Origin: Eremomyces bilateralis CBS 781.70
Taxonomy: Eukaryota
DNA length: 64,000 nucleotides
Assembly: GCA_010015585.1 (NCBI GenBank)
Contig: ML975154.1
Direction: 5' to 3' (one strand)
Shown here: positions 8,026 through 57,509 of the stretch, piece by piece
Numbering within the stretch: the stretch's first letter is position 1
How the letters are laid out: each line of letters starts with the position of its first letter
Program-made: the position numbers and the translations under genes
Notes under the pieces: generated by a model
Seen by the model: only the letters and a program-made list of their open reading frames with translations
The model's database searches: none
What the model was told of the DNA's origin: nothing

Positions 8026-11000
8026 ATGGAGCCGGTATGTGATCCTCCACTGCTCCACAACCTGGCTAACGATGCTGTTTCTTGCGCTCACATAGATCGA
8101 GGCTGATATCCCCATGGAGACCGAATTTGACGAGAAGCAAGACGTGGCCATCATTTCCAACGACGAATCCATGGAAGGCACAGAGAATGACGCGGATCAG
8201 ATCCGCGCCGACGACTTCGACGCCATAAAGAAGAAATACATGCCGGAGGTCCCGGATCAGGAAATAGAAGATGAAGCCACACACACATGGGAGATCGAGG
8301 ACTGGCGGGCTTTGGGCAAAAAGGAGCATGGCCCCATCTTCCAATGCGCTGGACACCCGTGGCGTGTGCTCTTCTTCCCATATGGCAACAATGTCGACTT
8401 CGCTTCCGTCTACCTCGAGCATGGATTTGAAGACAAGCCCTCGGATGATTGGTATTCATGCGTGCAGTTCCTTCTGATCCTATGGAATCCAAACGATCCC
8501 ACCATATACCAGCAACATTGCGCCAATCATCGGTTTACCGCAGATGAGAGCGACTGGGGATTCACAAGATTTGCAGAGAACAAGCGGCTATTTCATTCAC
8601 CATGGGAGGAAGGAAAGGACCGTCCACTCGTCGAAAACGATACGGCCAAGTTGACTGCATTCGTTCGCGTCTACAAAGATCCTACTGGCGTGCTCTGGCA
8701 CAACTTTGTGAACTATGATTCGAAAAAGGAAACTGGAATGGTTGGCCTCAAGAATCAAGGCGCTACATGCTATCTGAATTCCTTACTTCAGTCACTATAC
8801 TTCACCACAGCGTTCCGAAAGGTAGGGCTCAACTGAAATCCAGGGATGTGAAGCGCAGGTTAACGTATTGCTAGGCTGTCTACCAAATCCCAACCGAAAA
8901 TGAAGTCGAATATCGAGAAAATAGCGCATATGCGCTTCAGAGGCTGTTCTACCAATTGCAAACCAATCCCGGCGCGGTTTCCACTCTCGAGCTTACGGGT
9001 GCATTCGGGTGGGATTCGAAGCAGATTTTCGAGCAGCAGGATGTCCAGGAGCTTTCAAGAATTCTAATGGAGCGACTAGAGAAACATATGAAGGGCACCG
9101 AAGCCGCCGACGCCCTGGGGAGGATGTTTGTAGGCAAGATGAAGACCTATATCTCCTGCATAAACGTCGACTACGAGTCATCGAGAATAGAAGACTTCTG
9201 GGATCTTCAACTCAACGTCAGCGGCAACAAGAACCTCGACGACAGCTTCAAGGACTACGTCCAAGTCGAAACCCTGGACGGCGAGAACCAATATGACGCT
9301 GGAGAAGGACTGGGCCATCAAGATGCCAAGAAAGGGGTCATTTTCGAGACTTTCCCGAATGTGCTTCACCTTCAATTGAAGCGCTTCGAGTACGATTTCC
9401 AGCGCGATGTGATGATGAAGATCAACGACCGATACGAATTCCCTGATGTTTGGGATGCCTCACCCTACCTCTCCGACGACGCCGACCGATCCGAACCGTA
9501 CATCTATCACCTCCATGGCGTCCTGGTCCACAGCGGTGACCTGAACGCCGGACACTATTACGCTTTCTTGAAGCCAACCAAGAATGGCGACTTCTACAAA
9601 TTCGACGATGACCGAGTGACACGAGCAACCAAGAAGGAAGCATTGGAGGAGAACTTCGGTGGGGAAAATACTCCGCTTGCGAACGGCAACGTGCAGCAGC
9701 GGAATCCTTACACCCGAACATGGTCATCGAAGCGATCAATGAATGCATACATGTTGGTGTACATCAGAGAGAGCAGATTGGACGAGATCCTCATGCCGAA
9801 CGAGGTTGTCGAACCGCCATCACATCTTGGTAAGCCCGGCATTGCAAGTTGATTAATTGATTGGTTGCTAACAGCTCGCCAACAGAAACGAAATTTGCAG
9901 AAGAGAAAGAACTTCTGGAGCGAAGGCGAAAGGATAAAGAGGAAGCCCATCTGTACATGGAGGTGCAAATCGCATCCAACCACAACTTCAAAGCCTACCA
10001 AGGATTTGACATCGTTCCTTGGAAGACTGAGACGGGTACTCCTGCACACCCGAAGCTTTATAAGTTGCTCCGCAAGTCTACCTTGGCCGACCTTTGCGAG
10101 ATGGTTGGAAAAGATCTGGAGCTGGATCCAACGCTCATCCGTCCTTGGGTAATGGTCAACCGACAAAACGGCACCATCCGCCCCGACCAGCCTCTCGAGC
10201 TGCCCGACATGACTTGCGAAGAAGCGCACACAAAGTTTGGCACGAAGACGACCAACACCTTCCGGATCTGGATCGAATCCACCGACGAGAAAGACGAGAC
10301 CGGCAAACCCGTGTGGCCGAGCTCCAAAGTCGACCTGCATGGTGTCCAGAACAACAAACCGGTCCTCCTATTCCTCAAGTCTTTCGAACCAGACGCCCAG
10401 ACCCTTCTCGGTAAGGGCCAATTCTGCGCCGCGCTGCACGACAAAGTCTCGGACCTGTCCCCGCAGATTCTCAAATTGATGAACTGGCCGCCCGGGACCC
10501 CGATCAAGCTCTTCGAGGAAATCAAGCAGAACATGATCGAGCCCATGAAGCCCAAATCGACCCTCTACCAGTCGGAGATCCAGGATGGGGACATCATCAC
10601 CGTCCAGAAAAATCTGAGCGATAAGGAGATCGCGGCGTTGACCGCGAAAGGCCATTACTCGGAAGCCCGGGAGTACTACGACTGGATGCTGAACCGCATG
10701 AAGGTACATTTCGTGCCGAAGAATCAGCCGGGGTCGGTCGAGACCGACTTTGATTTGATGCTGTCGAAAAAGATGCTATATCCACAATGGTCAGTGAAGG
10801 TTGCCGAAAAGCTGGGTGTGGACGCGGGATATCTTCGTTTCTTCGCGGCCAATGCCGCCACGGGTCGTCCTAAAGGTGCGGTACGGCATACCTCAAACCA
10901 GACACTTGGACAGACTCTGAGCCCGAACTGGACCGGCTACGGGCCCAGTCACAATCAGCGACCAGACGTTCTTTTCTACGAAGTCCTCGAGGTGACGTTG

Positions 11001-11776
11001 ACGGAATTGGAGACGCGGAAGGGCGTCAAGGTGACACTTGTGTCGGAAGGCATTTCCAAAGAGGTATTTGCGCAGATGTTGTGTGGCACATTATGGGGTT
11101 CTAACCAATATGCAGGATTCCTACGAAATTCTCGTGTCAAAAATAGGCAACGTGAGCGACCTTGTCGACGGACTAGCGAAGAAGGCCGGGTTGGACCAGG
11201 AGACCGCGCAGCGTCTGCGGGTATACGAAGTGCATGCCCACAAGATCCACAAGGTCCTAACCGCGGACTATCCGGTTTCAAGCCTCAACGAGTACTCCAG
11301 CTTCTTCGCCGAGAAGATCCCGGAGGAGGAGGATGCGGCGGATGAAGGCGACCGCCACGTTCTGACGTTCCATTATGACAAGGAGCCGTCAAAACCGCAC
11401 AACGTCCCCTTCGTCTTCTTGGTCAAACAGGTATGTCCTTCTACTTCCATCTTCCATAAATTTCACATGATTGACTTTTCTAGGGTGAACTTTTCAAGGA
11501 TACCAAAGAACGACTGTCCAAGCGAATCGGCATCAAAGGCAAACAGTTTGAGAAGATCAAGTTCGCCGTTGTTCCCAAAGGCGCTATGTACGCCAAGCCG
11601 GAATATCTAGACGATGGTAAGTCCCAACCTCTCCCGGTGGTTGGAATGCCGCTAACAGCACTGTAGACGACATCCTCTACGAGCGGCTCGCCTCCCGCGA
11701 CGACATGCTAGCACTCGACCACATGAACAAGACTCGCAGCGTCTGGAACCGAGCGGATGCCATCCAAATTCGCTGA
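8026..11776 (+). CDS. UBP15: Ubiquitin C-terminal hydrolase USP7/Ubp15 (MATH + USP catalytic + UBL domains)
   Basis: MATH domain (WRVLFFPYGN..DWGFTRF), Cys box GLKNQGATCYLNSLLQ, QQDVQE, His box VHSGDLNAGHYYAF, KFDD; micro-exon ATG GAG CCG at 8026, 6 introns, stop TGA ends 11776. Confidence 0.96.
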
Positions 11777-36149: not shown

Positions 36150-37766
36150 TTATATTTGGAAATCTATACAGCATGATTCAAAAGATACAGCTTGGAGAGA
36201 CTCTGATGTAGATTTGGCCTCCGAAATTGGATGTCTTCGTTGGTAATCTTCCTCTACCGCTCGTACAGCTTCTTGTGCCAATTTGATCTCCCGAACTTGC
36301 GCAAACCTCTGATTAAGATCTATCTGAACTTTCTTTTTACGTTTTGGTGCTGTAGCAGCATCAAGGCGTGCCTGTAAGCCCGCGATTTTCAGATCTGATG
36401 AGGCCTGACGCGCCTGTAGCACTCCGATCGCCTTGGCTGCCTTCTCTATATACGACTTCGTCGTCTTTGCCACGCGTGTATTCTTGCTAAGAACGCGTAA
36501 TGCACTCTGTACCTGTTTTGGCTTGTAGGGCGTCGTCTGGAGAACGGAGGGGACTGGTATGGGGGTGCGTGGAGGCGTGTTTGGTGGTGGAATTGGTGGT
36601 GCGGTTACGGTAGGCGGTGACGGTACAACGAAGCGGTTACTGAGGCCCTTTGACCGGTCAAACGGCACAAGTCCTGCAGCCTTCCACCCAGATCTGATTG
36701 TACGGTCGGTTAGGCGTGCCTGACGTGCCTCTGCATAGAGGACAATGAATCTCCGTCGTTTAATCGGTAGGGCCTCGTCGATATACGCGCTTTGGCGGAG
36801 GAGGGTCTTATAAAAGCGTTTTAGAGGCGAAAAACAGGCGAGATCCAGAGGTTGAAGGATATGGGAGGTATGTGCAGGTAGGAAGACCACGATTACGTTG
36901 TTTATCTTGCATTCGTACAAGAAATCGATGGTTGCGTGGCTACCGTGCCCGTCCATTAGCAGAATCCGGTACTGCCGCTGTGTAGCGGTTTCAGGCAGGA
37001 AAACCGTACGGAGCCAAACCAACGCGTGTTGATTTGAAGTCCAGCCGTTCTCTGATACCGTATAATGGAAGTCTGGAGGTTGTTCAGGGAACCAAGAAGA
37101 CTGTAACGTGGCGCCTTTCTGTATAATCGCTGGTCTGATGTACTGGCCGGTCGCGGAGACAGTTTCAACGATACTAATCCATTCGCGGCCCATAGGACTA
37201 GTGATATAGGCCGTTGACTTCTGCGAGTCTGCGATAACCGTAGAATTAGCGCAAATCCCTAGTCCTATACCAACCTCATCCATATTCCAGGTATCAGAGG
37301 GGTGGACATCGTACTGAGTTTGAACTTGGTGAAAATACGTGTAGAACGCGTCGATTGTATCCTTAGTTGCAGCCTGACGTCGGGCAACATCAAGACTACG
37401 CCCGATACAGGTCGCAACGCGTGGATTACGGTGTAGGAAACGCGTTACCCAGTTCTTCCCGAGGGGCGTTGAGTCTCCTTGGAGGCGTAGAACTCGAGAT
37501 GCCATTTCGCGAAGCCGTGCGTGAGTAGGGGGGAATCCTTGAGCGTCATTTTCAAGTATCCAGTCGACTAAAAAGGATTCTTGGTCCGGTGTAAGGCGTT
37601 GGCGAGATTGTTGAGCTACTACGCGTGGTAGGCGGCCTTTTAAGCGGGTTTGAAGGGTGCGTCGGTTGACCTTGAATAGCGCCGCAGCTTCGTTTTGTGA
37701 TTTGCATTGACCGGTCTGTAAGGCATCAATAGCCTGTTGGACCGGGTCTTCCGAGTTTGGTATCAT
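36150..37766 (-). CDS. Pogo/Fot1 transposase (psq-HTH, CENP-B HTH, DDD domain), 538 aa
   Basis: LTPDQESFLVDWI, LGKNWVTRFLHRNP, WNMDEVG, SENGWTS, LLMDGHGSH, PAHTSHILQPLDLACFSPLK; uninterrupted. Confidence 0.96.
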   Translation of the reverse strand: MIPNSEDPVQQAIDALQTGQCKSQNEAAALFKVNRRTLQTRLKGRLPRVVAQQSRQRLTPDQESFLVDWILENDAQGFPPTHARLREMASRVLRLQGDSTPLGKNWVTRFLHRNPRVATCIGRSLDVARRQAATKDTIDAFYTYFHQVQTQYDVHPSDTWNMDEVGIGLGICANSTVIADSQKSTAYITSPMGREWISIVETVSATGQYIRPAIIQKGATLQSSWFPEQPPDFHYTVSENGWTSNQHALVWLRTVFLPETATQRQYRILLMDGHGSHATIDFLYECKINNVIVVFLPAHTSHILQPLDLACFSPLKRFYKTLLRQSAYIDEALPIKRRRFIVLYAEARQARLTDRTIRSGWKAAGLVPFDRSKGLSNRFVVPSPPTVTAPPIPPPNTPPRTPIPVPSVLQTTPYKPKQVQSALRVLSKNTRVAKTTKSYIEKAAKAIGVLQARQASSDLKIAGLQARLDAATAPKRKKKVQIDLNQRFAQVREIKLAQEAVRAVEEDYQRRHPISEAKSTSESLQAVSFESCCIDFQI

Positions 37767-37816
37767 GATATTGTACGGTGGTGGAGATATCGCGGTTAGA
37801 GAGATGGTGATAGAGG

Positions 37817-37866
37817 TGGTGATACTGGCTACTCGAGTGGTTGGCTACTTGACAGGGGGTTGAACT
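37817..37866 (-). repeat. Right terminal inverted repeat
   Basis: Exact reverse complement of 36055-36104. Confidence 0.97.
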
Positions 37867-51925: not shown

Positions 51926-54088
51926 ATGAATATGGAAGATGAGATGCTGCTCGTCTCATCTCCTAGTCCCGGCTATCATGTTCCCGACCATCTTCTTGAG
52001 AGCACAAGTTGTGCAATAGATGAAGACGATATGCTGCTGTTCTCTAAATCAGCAGATCCTCTAGTCAAGGGGTCTTTCGCTGAACCGGACCTCGATGGAC
52101 TTGATGGTGAGCCTAATCAGAGCGAATCTTCGCGAATGGACTTGGATCCCATAATACAGCCTTTGGATCTTCGCGATGAAGCTCTTCTCCATGTCTCCAA
52201 CGATGATGCTCAGGGTGAACCTTTGCGGATGGACTTGGAACCCGTGATACACTCGTCGGATCTCCCTGATGACGCTGTTCCCCACGTCTCCAACGCTGAT
52301 GCTCAGGATGAATCACCGATTTCGGACGACAATTCAGACTCCGTTTGGAGCTCACAAAACACCTCTTCTTTTGCCTTTAGTCAGGACAATGTCTATCACG
52401 GAAGCATCTGCAGCGATGAAGAGGCTTTACTCTTCGATTCCCCGAGTTCTTTCTTCTTGCATTCCAAGTCTCCTGCTTCTGAAAATAACGCTCATTCGTA
52501 TGAAGCCTCCGAAAACCACCCCGAAATTCAAAATCTTCTACGGGCCATGAATCAATCTCTAAAACTTTCTTTGGGGGTTACTGGCGGAAGCGTGGAGCAA
52601 TCGTTATCAGTGTCAGATGCTGCTAGCCCTGTGGAAACCGGCACTGCGAGCACCTTCTTGCAGCTGCAAGACGGGACTCATGACCACGACGCTGTCGCGG
52701 AACGAATACGCAGCGTGCTCAGTGGCGTCGCCCTCCAGAATTCGAGAAGTGAATCCCCTTCAATATTCCTAAAGAGCAGAAAGGAGCCTCAACAAGGAGA
52801 CACAAACAACGCAGATCCTCCATCAGGCCTTGCCAATCAATTGTCATACAGAACAATATGTCTACGCACATCTTCGCTTCCTAGAACGGAAAGATTTGGT
52901 GAGATAGGTTACAGGCTATCGTTGGCCAGCGCTAATTTCTCATCCAGTCACATTAGTGCTGGTACTCTCGCAAATCTTAATGTGCATACAGGGCAATATC
53001 GTCCTGTCGAAAAGGTCAGGGCAAACCTTGATTGGTGTCTTTTGTTGGCTAACCGGTGCTTAGAGACATCTACTACCGACATCCGGACATCTTCCGAACT
53101 CAATCCACCGTGGATCGTATCATCGACGATGTATCATTCTCTCTGGACGTCCCTCGACACTTGTTGCATATTGTCTGTACCCACTCCTGCGCCAACACAT
53201 TGGTACAGCTAACGTGGAGGGTTACTTATAGACTGCCGCAGCCAAAGGTCTGGCTCTTGGAGCTTGCAGACTCGAAAGCGGCTTCGGAAGCAGTTCGAAA
53301 TTTTCCAATAAAGAGGTATGATGGTGCTATAGATTGCGGCATTCACGCACAAAGCAATTTGCTGATCCGCTTGTGAACTATAGGGCACCTTGCTCCACCG
53401 AGTCAAAGACAACGAGGGGCTGTATTGCCCCGATGTTAAGTGGATCATTGTTGTTGAGAAAGAGGTTTGCAATGGCTCAAGTCTTCTACAGCCTATGTCT
53501 CACCTCAGCTAGGCTTCCTTTCGTTCACTGGCAGAGTCATGGCTGGGGTCTATAGCAATCCAGGAAGGGCTAATCATAACCGTTTGTCATCCTATCTGAC
53601 TTTGGCTCATATGCTAAATCAGACAGGCCAAGGGCTATCCGGACATCGCCACTCGATCATTCCTTCGGAAAGTAGTGGATGTCAAAAGTCAGTGCGGAGA
53701 TGGCACCGTGCCAACGTATGCCCTTGTCGATTTCGATCCCGATGGCATATCGATATACCTGACCTACAAGTACGGCTCTCGAGCTCTTTCTCATCTCAAC
53801 AGTGAGCTCAACGTAGCATCTCTACGATGGATGGGGCCGACGGGTAGCGATGTCGTCGCGTCAGGCGCCGAGCATGGTGACGATCTGCTCAGCCTCACAG
53901 AACGCGACCGACGAAGAGTGAGGTGTCTATTGGGGCGAAAAGAGCTTGACCAAGACAATACCGAGCAGGATCTGAGGAGAGAGTTGCAGGTTATGTTGCT
54001 CCTCAACGTGAAGGCCGAGATACAATGCTTAGATCGTGGGCACAAGGGGGTTGCTAATTGGGTATCAGAGCGCATGAAGCAGCGATAA
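51926..54088 (+). CDS. SPO11: Meiotic double-strand-break transesterase Spo11 with long acidic N-terminal extension
   Basis: SKR|DIYYRHP (catalytic Tyr), QSTVDRIIDD, TAAAKGL, VVEKE|ASF, IIT|AKGYPD, LVDFDPDGISIY, KAEIQ; 6 introns. Start codon uncertain. Confidence 0.92.
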
Positions 54089-54120
54089 AATACCATCAAC
54101 CAATATTGAATGCTCTCAAG

Positions 54121-55575
54121 TTAACCCTTGGCACGAATCAGCTCACCACATAGGGCGTCGAACTCCATCTGGTCGGCGGCTGCAGCCGCACGTATCTTCC
54201 GCTGTTGAGATACCTCAGCGGGTGACCAAGTAGCGTTAAATCTTTCGACTCCATCGACAACATAACCTCGAATTGAAGTCAAAACCCAGTCTTTCTCTAT
54301 ACGATCAATTTGTCGACTTCGTAATGACGCGAGCGGTGTAAATGAAGAAACGTATTGCGGCGTACGCGACCCTCGAAGTGATTGGGACCTGTTGCTCATA
54401 ACACACGCGAATCTGGGACAGCCGGTGTTTGCACCCTCGTAAGTGCAGATGCCCCCGTCAATATTAAACCCTTTCTCCAAAAGCACTTTCACCCGTGCCA
54501 TGAACTCGTCATTCGACAATGGGCGGCCTGGAGAAATCCCCTTCTCGTAAGCGGTGTGCAACAGGACTGTGGTATATCTCGTGTTGATCGACTCCCAGCG
54601 AGACGTATATAAAGATCCTCGAGTTCCGGTAGTTTGGATCTCAATGCTTGTACATTCCATTCCGCGGTCCCGAAACGCTCTGCTGCTTATGAAGAAGTCG
54701 GATTCAGACTACTCCAACACAAACTCCGATTTTCGATCGCGTAAAACCACCGATGGCTGTTTCTCAAACAGCGACGCATATCGGACGTTGTCCTGGACAT
54801 CGATATATGATGTCGACGCTCGCCAGATGCAATCATTCAGGGTTTCGATTGCCCCACAAATCCCGTTGCGATCATGCCCAAGGAACGGTATTGTTTCTGG
54901 TCCATCCTCCTCCCAAATGGCACAGAAGCGGTTCTTCCCTCGGTACCTGTAACATGAGAGGTACGAGAATGTCACACCTTTCGACCTATTCAGATCACCT
55001 AACGCTCGAAATCCGCCAGTCTTCCGCGTATGGTCCTCCGGTATCAGTGCTCTAGTATCCATTTCTTCTACTGCCGACCCCCAGTCAGGCATGGCGGTGA
55101 AATTAGATGCTGGAGATGCAATTCCTTGGCCTGGTTGAAGGTTCGTATACGTCGATGTCGCCTCAGCGTATCGAGGTGGAGGACCATGGCTGGACGGCGC
55201 CAGACCTTTTGATGAACACTGGCTATCTTTCTCCCTGAGCAGTGCAGTGTTGATACCCTGCAGCTCCCCCACCAGCGTTGTAATACCCGACCTCGACGAG
55301 AACCACCGGAGTGGGCTAGTCCGACCCATGGCTTTCACCTTCTCGTCCAAAATAGGCATTAACTTTGTGCACGCGGAAAATAGAGGTCTCAGTGAATCCA
55401 GTTCAGCGTCGTTCATGTCCTGTTGAATTGTTTGGAGTGTCTCCAGCACGGCGTGCAATATTGTTTCTAGTTGTTTGGCTTCCGGAAGAGTCTTCGACGC
55501 TGAGGTTGACTGGATTTCTATTTCAAGGCGTGAACAGTTACTGATGAGCAAATGCAAGGTTCCGCTCGTCGCCAT
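54121..55575 (-). pseudogene. HeLo-like/SesA-type N-domain fused to five polyglycine-hydrolase-like (BTRD1-type) repeats; one in-frame TAG
   Basis: ORFs 54709-55596 and 54121-54660 share a frame and are separated only by TAG 54711-54709; repeats end RFCAIWEE, RYASLFEK, LYTSRWES, RFACVMSN, RFNATWSP. Confidence 0.65.
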
Positions 55576-56837
55576 CGTTGCTTGGTGCAAAGTCACAATT
55601 CAGTGGTGTACGGTATACTAACACCCTTGATTTCAGAAGAGGATGAAATGTTTCAACAAGCATGCCCGTCCAGGTTCAATTATAGCGATATTCCGACTAG
55701 TTAGGGCATGATATCTTGCTTTGAGGAAGGCAGTGCCTTTCAACTTGGCTCCTATCCAAAATGCTGTTCTGAGGCGGAGCAGTTCAGCCTTGACCCTAGC
55801 CAAGCACCACTGGAATGGAGAAAGCAAGCGACCCAAAAACGACTCCGAGGCATGTGGATGTAAAATTGGTTGATATAAATTCGGGTTCTCCTCAAAATAC
55901 CAGTAGCCAAGTGCCTGTATTACAGCTCTGAAACGCTGCATGTCCGAAGATGACATCCGGGAGAGGTTGCGACTCGGACTCGGACTCGTCTGAGACCTGC
56001 ACTTCAACCACCATACGACCAAGTCTAAGTTGTGGAGGAGCATACTGAAGAGGTACGTACCGACTGTACGTTTCAATGGTCAAGTTTTGTCAAAAAGAGC
56101 TGGAAGCCCGAGGATGCAGAGCGGAACCGCTGGCGGAGTTTGATCTACTCAGAATTCTTGTCTCCTGCTCCCACATGGCATGACTGAGCACCTTGATGTG
56201 ATTCACGCCCATCTGCGATTGCTCGAGAGTTATGGTCGCTGGTGCTCGGACACTTGCAACATTGATATGTATCCAATGGGGGGTACTGACGGCGGTGTGC
56301 TTCCAAATCAACAGATCACACCATCAGGTTCTGGCCCGAGGGGTAGTGTCGTTCTGTTACTACTGCTCGCTTGCGCTGTAGAGGTTGACCCTGGTGTGGC
56401 TTCAATATATTCGCCAGCGGGGCTGCTAGCCACATTCACAACAAACATCATTCGATGTACGTACAATATGCCTCGGTGCATGGTATATTCTCTCCCAATG
56501 ACCTGAATCAACATATATGTACAAGGGTGATGTCAGTACGGCCCTGACCGACGACGAGGGAAGAGTAATATCCTATCCCAGGATTTCGGTATCAGGATGC
56601 TCTCCTGATGGAATGACATTTGCCCAAAAGTCATGCGAATGGAGCTCATACTTCCTATCTCTTAGGATAAAGAAGCATATAAAAGTAAGGTCAGTAATGA
56701 GCATTCTGGACTCCAATTGCAAAGATATTCTCGTGCAGTCAATTGCGATACTGCGTTACACTTATAGATTCACCTAAGGACATTAAACCAATACGTTCGT
56801 CGCCACCAATCTCGTACCCCTGGTGAATCCATCCGCC

Positions 56838-57509
56838 ATGGTCGACGTCCCCTACATTTTCCCTAACCAAGGGGTTCCCGCTCCCCATCTCCCCCACATC
56901 CACCTCCCGCACCACAACCCTCACTCCCTCGACTATCACCCTCATTCCCGCCCCTCCGCCCGCGTCCCGCTGTTCGACCTCCGCGAATCCAGCAAAGCCT
57001 ACTTCCTCGAAGGCGAGTTAGCCGGCGTCACAGACGCCGGCGCCGTCCACATCGAGTGGCTGGATGACCGCACCTTGCTGGTGGAGGCCGAGGTGCTCGG
57101 CGTCGATTGGACGAAGGAGTGGGAGGAGGGCGCGGGAAAACCGGCCGATGGAGGGAGTGGAGCGGCGGAGAGCTCGGCTGCCGCCGCGGCGAGAGGCAGT
57201 ACGGATACGGGGGGTACGAAGGGAGACAAAGAGCACCATGAAGATGTTCCAGTGGTAGAGGCCGCTCCTGCTGTTGCGACCACTGGTGGGCTGGGTGAGG
57301 TGCGGCAGTGGTTGCATGAGCGACATGTCGGGCATCATAAGAGGCAGTTCACGTTCCCAGTGCAAGTCAAGCATAAAGGAGTGTCGGCGCGGCTAGGGGG
57401 CGGATTGCTGAGGGTTGTGGTGCCGAAGCAAAAGGAGGAGCCAGCAAAGAAGGTGAGGAAGGTTATAGTGTTGGGTCTTGAAGGAGTGGAGGTCGGCTTG
57501 AGAGCGTAG
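56838..57509 (+). CDS. Small heat-shock protein (HSP20/alpha-crystallin)
   Basis: PLFDLRESSKAYFLEGELAGV..IEWLDDRTL; WLHERHVGHHKRQFTFP..VSARLGGGLLRVVVPK; start context GCCATGG. Confidence 0.9.
   Translation: MVDVPYIFPNQGVPAPHLPHIHLPHHNPHSLDYHPHSRPSARVPLFDLRESSKAYFLEGELAGVTDAGAVHIEWLDDRTLLVEAEVLGVDWTKEWEEGAGKPADGGSGAAESSAAAAARGSTDTGGTKGDKEHHEDVPVVEAAPAVATTGGLGEVRQWLHERHVGHHKRQFTFPVQVKHKGVSARLGGGLLRVVVPKQKEEPAKKVRKVIVLGLEGVEVGLRA

Follow-up and report, generated by a model that had tools for sequence, protein, structure and literature searches.

A fungal reading frame, interrupted once by an in-frame TAG, for a predicted protein with a helical head and five BTRD1-type repeats

We identified a gene on the minus strand of a fungal DNA stretch of 64,000 nucleotides (Eremomyces bilateralis CBS 781.70; the whole analysed stretch is referred to here as the window). 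The gene encodes a helical N-terminal head that a disordered linker joins to a five-unit BTRD1 domain with a short helical tail, and it is interrupted by a single in-frame TAG (Table 1). It is real, or was so recently. We see about an even chance that this is a genuine, lineage-restricted fungal gene of Ascomycota type which specified a cytosolic two-domain protein and has recently been inactivated by the nonsense codon. The TAG is codon 289, at the start of repeat 3, and the product as encoded therefore has two of the five repeats. In this genome it would be a protein of 288 aa made up of the head, the linker and those two repeats, too few for closure of a barrel. The title of the first-pass annotation did not mention the interruption, and the TAG was given too little weight; the encoded protein stops after the second repeat.

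Table 1. Coordinates of the gene and its parts within the window
Feature	Position	Strand	Basis or remark
Whole frame	54121..55575	-	484 codons plus terminal TAA (54121-54123); single exon as read, interrupted once
Helical N-domain, residues 1-122, four long helices	55210..55575	-	AF2 single-sequence model; Pfam below cut-off; ESM Atlas neighbours
Linker, residues 123-170	55066..55209	-	69% P/G/S/T/N/Q/A; pLDDT 21-31
PPRY (PPxY-type) motif, residues 133-136	55168..55179	-	in low-confidence linker
Putative BTRD1-type repeat 1, residues 171-223 (…SYLSCYRYRGKNRFCAIWE)	54907..55065	-	hhalign E 1.4e-4; hmmsearch with unit profile; BLASTP against P0004
Putative BTRD1-type repeat 2, residues 224-272	54760..54906	-	hhalign E 6.9e-4; Pfam stretch 257-273
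Putative BTRD1-type repeat 3, residues 273-329, holds premature stop	54589..54759	-	hhalign E 0.078; P0003 alignment runs through stop
Premature stop TAG, codon 289	54709-54711	-	between first strand and helix of repeat 3; same in three runs
Putative BTRD1-type repeat 4, residues 330-395, most divergent	54391..54588	-	pairwise alignments only; missed by unit profile
Putative BTRD1-type repeat 5, residues 396-452 (…IRGYVVDGVERFNATW)	54220..54390	-	Pfam best stretch 428-450; hhalign E 1.8e-4
C-terminal helical tail, residues 453-484	54124..54219	-	helices 455-465 and 469-483, low-confidence model

The reading frame and its repeat domain

Translation of the minus strand from 55575 to 54121 gives a frame of 484 codons that is broken internally only once. 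With the terminal TAA included it has two stops, compared with 18 and 23 in the remaining frames of the same strand, and an open frame of this length is thus far from anything expected by chance. Its first ATG is at 55575, and the stop-to-stop frame is only eight codons longer upstream. The longest uninterrupted genomic ORF of the gene is 288 aa. The G+C content of the stretch is approximately 51%, and it carries no RIP-type dinucleotide bias, including in the 50-60 kb part of the window. No paralogue of the gene occurs within the window, and scans of the window for Rfam families and tRNAs were both empty.

The stop codon of the gene lies 32 nt from that of Spo11/Top6A, whose last exon occupies positions 53618-54088 on the plus strand (Toprim domain, E 7e-27). 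The 3' ends of the two genes converge and their transcripts are likely to overlap, and a meiosis gene as antisense neighbour may have a bearing on stage-specific expression. On the other side, upstream of the studied gene, is a divergent HSP20 gene (56838-57509, plus strand, E 8e-8), with approximately 1.26 kb between the two start codons. Further neighbours encode a MIZ-finger protein and CAF-1 subunit A. The window also holds a Tc5/pogo-like transposase (36150-37844, minus strand), with 564 uninterrupted codons containing a Tc5-type HTH and a DDE_1 domain, apparently an intact transposon. A gene for a USP7-type deubiquitinase (8096-11345, plus strand) extends over three neighbouring open frames, which presumably are exons separated by short introns and together encode MATH, UCH, ICP0-binding and C-terminal domains. 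There is no sign of a defence island or a secondary-metabolite cluster among the neighbouring genes.

Sequence comparisons support the assignment of the C-terminal half to a putative five-unit BTRD1 (polyglycine-hydrolase-like) domain. Five repeats of about 50 aa with the pattern R(F/Y)xxxW had been annotated on the first pass. The strand motif is indeed found five times, with spacings of 49-66 residues (RFCAIW at residues 216-221, RYASLF at 265-270, LYTSRW at 322-327, RFACVM at 388-393 and RFNATW at 445-450), but the literal R(F/Y)xxxW occurs in only two of the five. When the stop is read through as X, the Pfam family BTRD1 (PF17660, 'Polyglycine hydrolase-like, structural repeat') matches with a score of 28.1 bits (cut-off 23; E 1.9e-6). 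Each half alone scores below the cut-off (14.9 and 18.2 bits).

The repeat assignment also draws on individual relatives. In a BLASTP alignment with the bacterial protein P0004 (pairwise E 5e-9), residues 198-450 match one 51-residue unit after another and keep in phase with them. The unit profile made from P0004 matches four of the five repeats (1, 2, 3 and 5), but not repeat 4. When the read-through (P0001) and its relative P0003 are combined in a profile, this has a single match at E<=10 among 177,635 PDB sequences, to the N-domain of 7tpu_A (E 0.45); the read-through alone has no match among PDB sequences at E<=10. The annotated likeness to the repeats of polyglycine hydrolases is borne out by the Pfam score, the unit profile and the matches to P0003, P0004 and 7tpu_A. 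In the ESM Atlas, the 194 residues after the stop are nearest to BTRD1 clusters (0.93). This is a weak result, with a recognition value of 1519, below 2300, and agreement among five of the ten best named matches. Automatic alignment of the five units with MAFFT did not find their register.

An exhaustive phmmer search of 1.84 billion representatives returned four proteins at E<=0.001, namely the gene's own 288-aa ORF, P0003, P0004 and P0005. There is one true relative among them, P0003. This is a fragment of 274 aa, a JGI 'hypothetical protein', with 25% identity over residues 204-463 (E 2.4e-8 library-wide) and a BTRD1 score of its own of 36.2 bits. The alignment crosses the stop site with no gap at the position of the stop. 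The 703-aa bacterial protein P0004 carries an array of 51-residue BTRD1 units. The N-terminus of P0004 is a lysyl-oxidase-like catalytic domain (PDB 5ZE3, E 4.5e-12), and this protein is a further case of BTRD1 repeats joined to an enzyme. P0005 was rejected as a relative because it is a chance match of a short FMAR-type repeat.

Word-indexed protein searches with the read-through, with the alignment of P0001 and P0003, and with the N-domain yielded nothing new. Scanning metagenomes yielded 41 pattern matches for P0003 and 95 for the alignment, and a scan of prokaryote genomes for P0004 yielded 139; none was confirmed in any of the three scans. The first-pass annotation had called for a survey of the architecture across fungi. 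As the family is almost empty, with a single distant and fragmentary relative, there is no conserved architecture to survey.

The N-terminal domain and the linker

The N-terminal domain is all-helical in the predicted model. The full-length AF2 model, made from a two-sequence alignment, has a pLDDT of 34.1, which is too low to use. AF2 on residues 1-125 gives, with moderate confidence, four long helices together with a short one (residues 4-25, 33-53, 56-60, 63-82 and 95-122; pLDDT 68.8, pTM 0.51). The string LRWFSSRSGITTLVGELQGINTALL, with which the annotated helical domain was said to end, is located at residues 89-113. Foldseek, a wide VIA search and a second-look VIA search with the N-domain model found generic helical bundles only. 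The best match is DbpA (Z 9.4, rmsd 3.1 over 107 residues), and for helical models a Z below about 13 means little. HET-s, MLKL and other HeLo-type structures are absent among the fold matches listed.

The best Pfam match of the N-domain is SesA (PF17107), with 14.8-15.1 bits against a cut-off of 26.3 and E 0.027-0.033 over 24,736 models; residues 24-78 align with positions 18-78 of the 122 in the model. PigL_N (PF17111), which we take to be Helo_like_N under a new name, is second with 13.7-14.1 bits against a cut-off of 27.2 (E 0.031-0.04). The two matches are mutually consistent in register and lie near the N-terminus. The next match, to the unrelated family SAVED (E 0.038-0.049), shows the level of the noise.

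An embedding search of the ESM Atlas placed the N-domain closest to 30 clusters that are all from Ascomycota (scores 0.91-0.94). Half of these (15) belong to a set in which 10% of the members carry PigL_N, two to a set with SesA on 21% and one to a set with both. Altogether 18 of the 30 clusters are in sets with PigL_N or SesA on 10-24% of their members, and the other 12 have no common family. Shuffled proteins reach at least 0.9 in 4-10 of 100 cases, a figure that applies to whole proteins, whereas the query here is part of one. The search of 1.84 billion representatives returned no homologue of the N-domain at E<=0.001, proteins of 68-219 aa that share words with it gave none at E<=10, and a comparison with PDB sequences gave two matches only, both at chance level.

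The annotated HeLo-like/SesA identity of the N-domain thus stands as a lead only: SesA and PigL_N are its two best Pfam matches, but their 14-15 bits fall well short of the cut-offs (26.3 and 27.2), and no structural match stood out. We regard the lead as a reasonable one and candidate membership of these families as somewhat probable. It is unlikely, though well worth weighing, that the N-domain is instead a generic helical or coiled segment unrelated to SesA and HeLo-like domains, in which case the gene, whether alive or dead, would be one for a BTRD1-barrel protein with a lineage-specific helical extension and a function other than cell death. This would agree with the sub-threshold scores of every N-domain family, with SAVED scoring as well as the others, with the lack of sequence homologues and the generic fold matches, and with the frequency at which shuffled proteins reach at least 0.9 in the ESM Atlas. 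However, the top two of the 24,736 models are related families, collinear and at the extreme N-terminus, where such domains sit, and an independent embedding search arrives at the same families, in Ascomycota only.

The PPPRY reported in the linker is present at residues 132-136. By chance, a PPxY motif appears in 466 of 20,000 composition-preserving shuffles. Regulation by Rsp5 through the PPRY would be only a guess from a motif that is one among many that could be sought. The linker has 48 residues and leaves no room for an NTPase module. No NACHT, NB-ARC or other NTPase matched the whole protein in Pfam at E<=10, in agreement with the annotated absence of NACHT and NB-ARC. The same annotation described the protein as lacking a signal peptide, and there is no hydrophobic leader or transmembrane segment, as judged by Kyte-Doolittle hydropathy alone (mean of the first 25 residues 0.27; maximum over a 19-residue window 0.61). 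There is also no beta-lactamase domain, BTRD1 being the only Pfam family matched by the whole protein at E<=10, and the protein ends 32 residues past repeat 5. Lacking NACHT or NB-ARC, a signal peptide-like segment and a beta-lactamase domain, the predicted protein is neither an NLR nor a polyglycine hydrolase.

Status of the in-frame stop codon

The Logan contigs of three sequencing runs are identical over positions 54000-55700 (1.7 kb), with no difference, gap or joint; X1 and X3 are of one sample, possibly the source of the assembly, and X2 is of another sample and study. The TAG is real in the sampled contigs, and the agreement of the three runs makes an assembly error unlikely as its origin. 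The runs listed as covering the gene included none of RNA. A fourth run, X4 (DNA, assembly-sized), had no match on 54000-55700 at >=85% likeness, which is no proof of absence. X4 shares the species label of X2 but is shown as organism B, X2 being shown as organism A, and its lack of a match could be presence/absence variation or a labelling difference.

Opposite codon 289, P0003 has a Ser, and the canonical unit has the Ser of its 'NLTS' turn. The 195 codons past the TAG are still open and recognisably BTRD1, which favours a recent inactivation, and the present state of the gene is most likely that of a young pseudogene.

A very short intron could remove the TAG, and a GTTTGT...CAG span of 42-45 nt, the least poor candidate, does cover the TAG and preserve the frame. 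However, all 50 frame-keeping GT..AG spans over the TAG (36-250 nt) lack both a CTRAY branch motif and a canonical donor, and the 42-45 nt span would take away the first part of the helix of repeat 3, which aligns with P0003. An intron of this kind or an assembly error, the latter opposed by contigs of three runs that show neither joint nor difference, is an extremely unlikely explanation of the TAG. We also find it distinctly improbable that the product of 288 aa, with its head, linker and two repeats, is functional and that the 195 codons downstream are its decaying remnant. The 288-aa ORF does stand as a protein in public annotation (P0002; NCBI/UniRef), and similar heads are found as stand-alone short proteins of 127-161 aa in the nearest ESM Atlas clusters. 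However, two of five repeats cannot make the closed barrel of 7TPU, and the tail would probably be unfolded. In addition, the 90% identity cluster of P0002 has one member, and no other protein of such length was found.

The TAG could also be read after editing. Some filamentous ascomycetes edit A to I in their mRNAs during the sexual stage, which turns UAG into UGG (Trp). That this happens here is the main alternative to a young pseudogene but rather improbable, and so is its consequence, a full-length protein in fruiting bodies only, with at most the 288-aa stump in vegetative cells. According to passages of PMC11156358, the editing prefers U at -1 and hairpin loops, and 71 genes of F. graminearum need UAG-to-UGG correction. 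The sole break in the present frame is a TAG, the stop that such editing turns into sense, with the required U at -1. When the 61 nt around it are folded, its A stays unpaired in the MFE as well as the centroid structure, and the 195 codons downstream are intact. Portions of PMC10776026 indicate that corrected stops are often derived from codons other than Trp and that ancestral versions without editing can cause harm at stages other than the sexual one; such harm would fit a potentially lethal protein.

However, the local fold is no stabler than those of shuffled sequences (z -0.12; 88 of 200 shuffles fold as well), and the A lies in a loop of 14 nt rather than an anticodon-like loop of 7 nt. 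At the aligned position both P0003 and the canonical unit have Ser rather than Trp, and an open downstream frame is equally expected of a young pseudogene. The sections of PMC11156358 and PMC10776026 consulted here describe sexual-stage A-to-I editing for Sordariomycetes and one Pezizomycete, and a passage of PMC11156358 adds that Aspergillus nidulans and Botrytis cinerea are species in which it was not detected. We continue to favour a gene recently inactivated by the nonsense codon.

Possible function and comparison with known systems

By analogy with MLKL and HET-S/HELLP, the barrel of an intact protein may have acted as a binding or regulatory module that kept the helical head inactive until a trigger freed it to act on membranes. 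Such a logic of head plus regulatory module would be that of MLKL and HET-S/HELLP as outlined in parts of PMC12881547 and PMC4986451. An immune or cell-death function, including the compact immune receptor proposed on the first pass, is something that we infer only from this analogy. We consider it very improbable that the gene encodes a potentially lethal, MLKL-like executioner with a SesA/HeLo-like head, a BTRD1 barrel as sensor and no NTPase, in which the UAG is read as Trp only after sexual-stage editing. If that were true, the stop codon would be a developmental safety catch on a cell-death protein and not a lesion.

A full-text literature search on repeat-domain terms found no work with a pairing of this N-domain and BTRD1, and we provisionally regard the pairing as undescribed. 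The BTRD1 barrel has no known function according to the available text of PMC9912923. If the head is a HeLo-like executioner, the pairing would give the barrel its first hypothesis, that of an intracellular sensor or regulatory module. With an interruption and a single, fragmentary relative, the near-orphan gene has little general significance as it stands. For practical purposes two points should be kept in mind: the frame is broken, and the evidence behind the N-domain call is sub-threshold.

The predicted C-terminal domain resembles the N-domain of the polyglycine hydrolase Fvan-cmp (PDB 7TPU), with five tandem units of about 50 residues, each a helix and then a hairpin ending in a strand of the R-[FY]-x-x-x-W type. 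In the portion of PMC9912923 consulted, Dowling et al. describe the 7TPU domain as five quasi-identical 44-residue EHEE repeats that form a barrel of unknown function. However, the protein described here lacks both a signal peptide-like segment and a catalytic domain of the beta-lactamase type, and its repeats are C-terminal, whereas those of polyglycine hydrolases are N-terminal. In addition, its repeats are extremely divergent, to the point that profiles miss unit 4, and a stop interrupts the gene.

The head is similar to the SesA (PF17107) and PigL_N (PF17111) heads of fungal NLRs and small proteins in its length of about 120 residues, its all-helical character and its position at the extreme N-terminus. 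However, its scores are approximately half of the family cut-offs, and no NACHT or NB-ARC follows it. BTRD1, the partner domain here, is not among the NLR repeat types (ANK, WD40 and TPR) given in the consulted section of PMC4986451, where sesA and HeLo-like annotations are also noted to overlap.

The single in-frame TAG in an otherwise intact frame recalls the premature-stop-corrected (PSC) pseudogenes of Fusarium graminearum. However, the hairpin around the TAG is not significant here.

As presented in parts of PMC12881547, HeLo, HeLo-like, SesA and Goodbye domains are grouped with the four-helix bundle of MLKL. The same source portrays MLKL (a four-helix bundle plus pseudokinase) and HET-S/HELLP (HeLo or HeLo-like domain plus amyloid motif) as having a head, a linker and a C-terminal regulatory module with no NTPase, the layout also predicted here. 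However, neither the sequence searches nor the fold matches listed turned up MLKL or HET-s, and its regulatory module would be a repeat barrel, in place of the kinase fold of MLKL and the prion motif of HET-S/HELLP.
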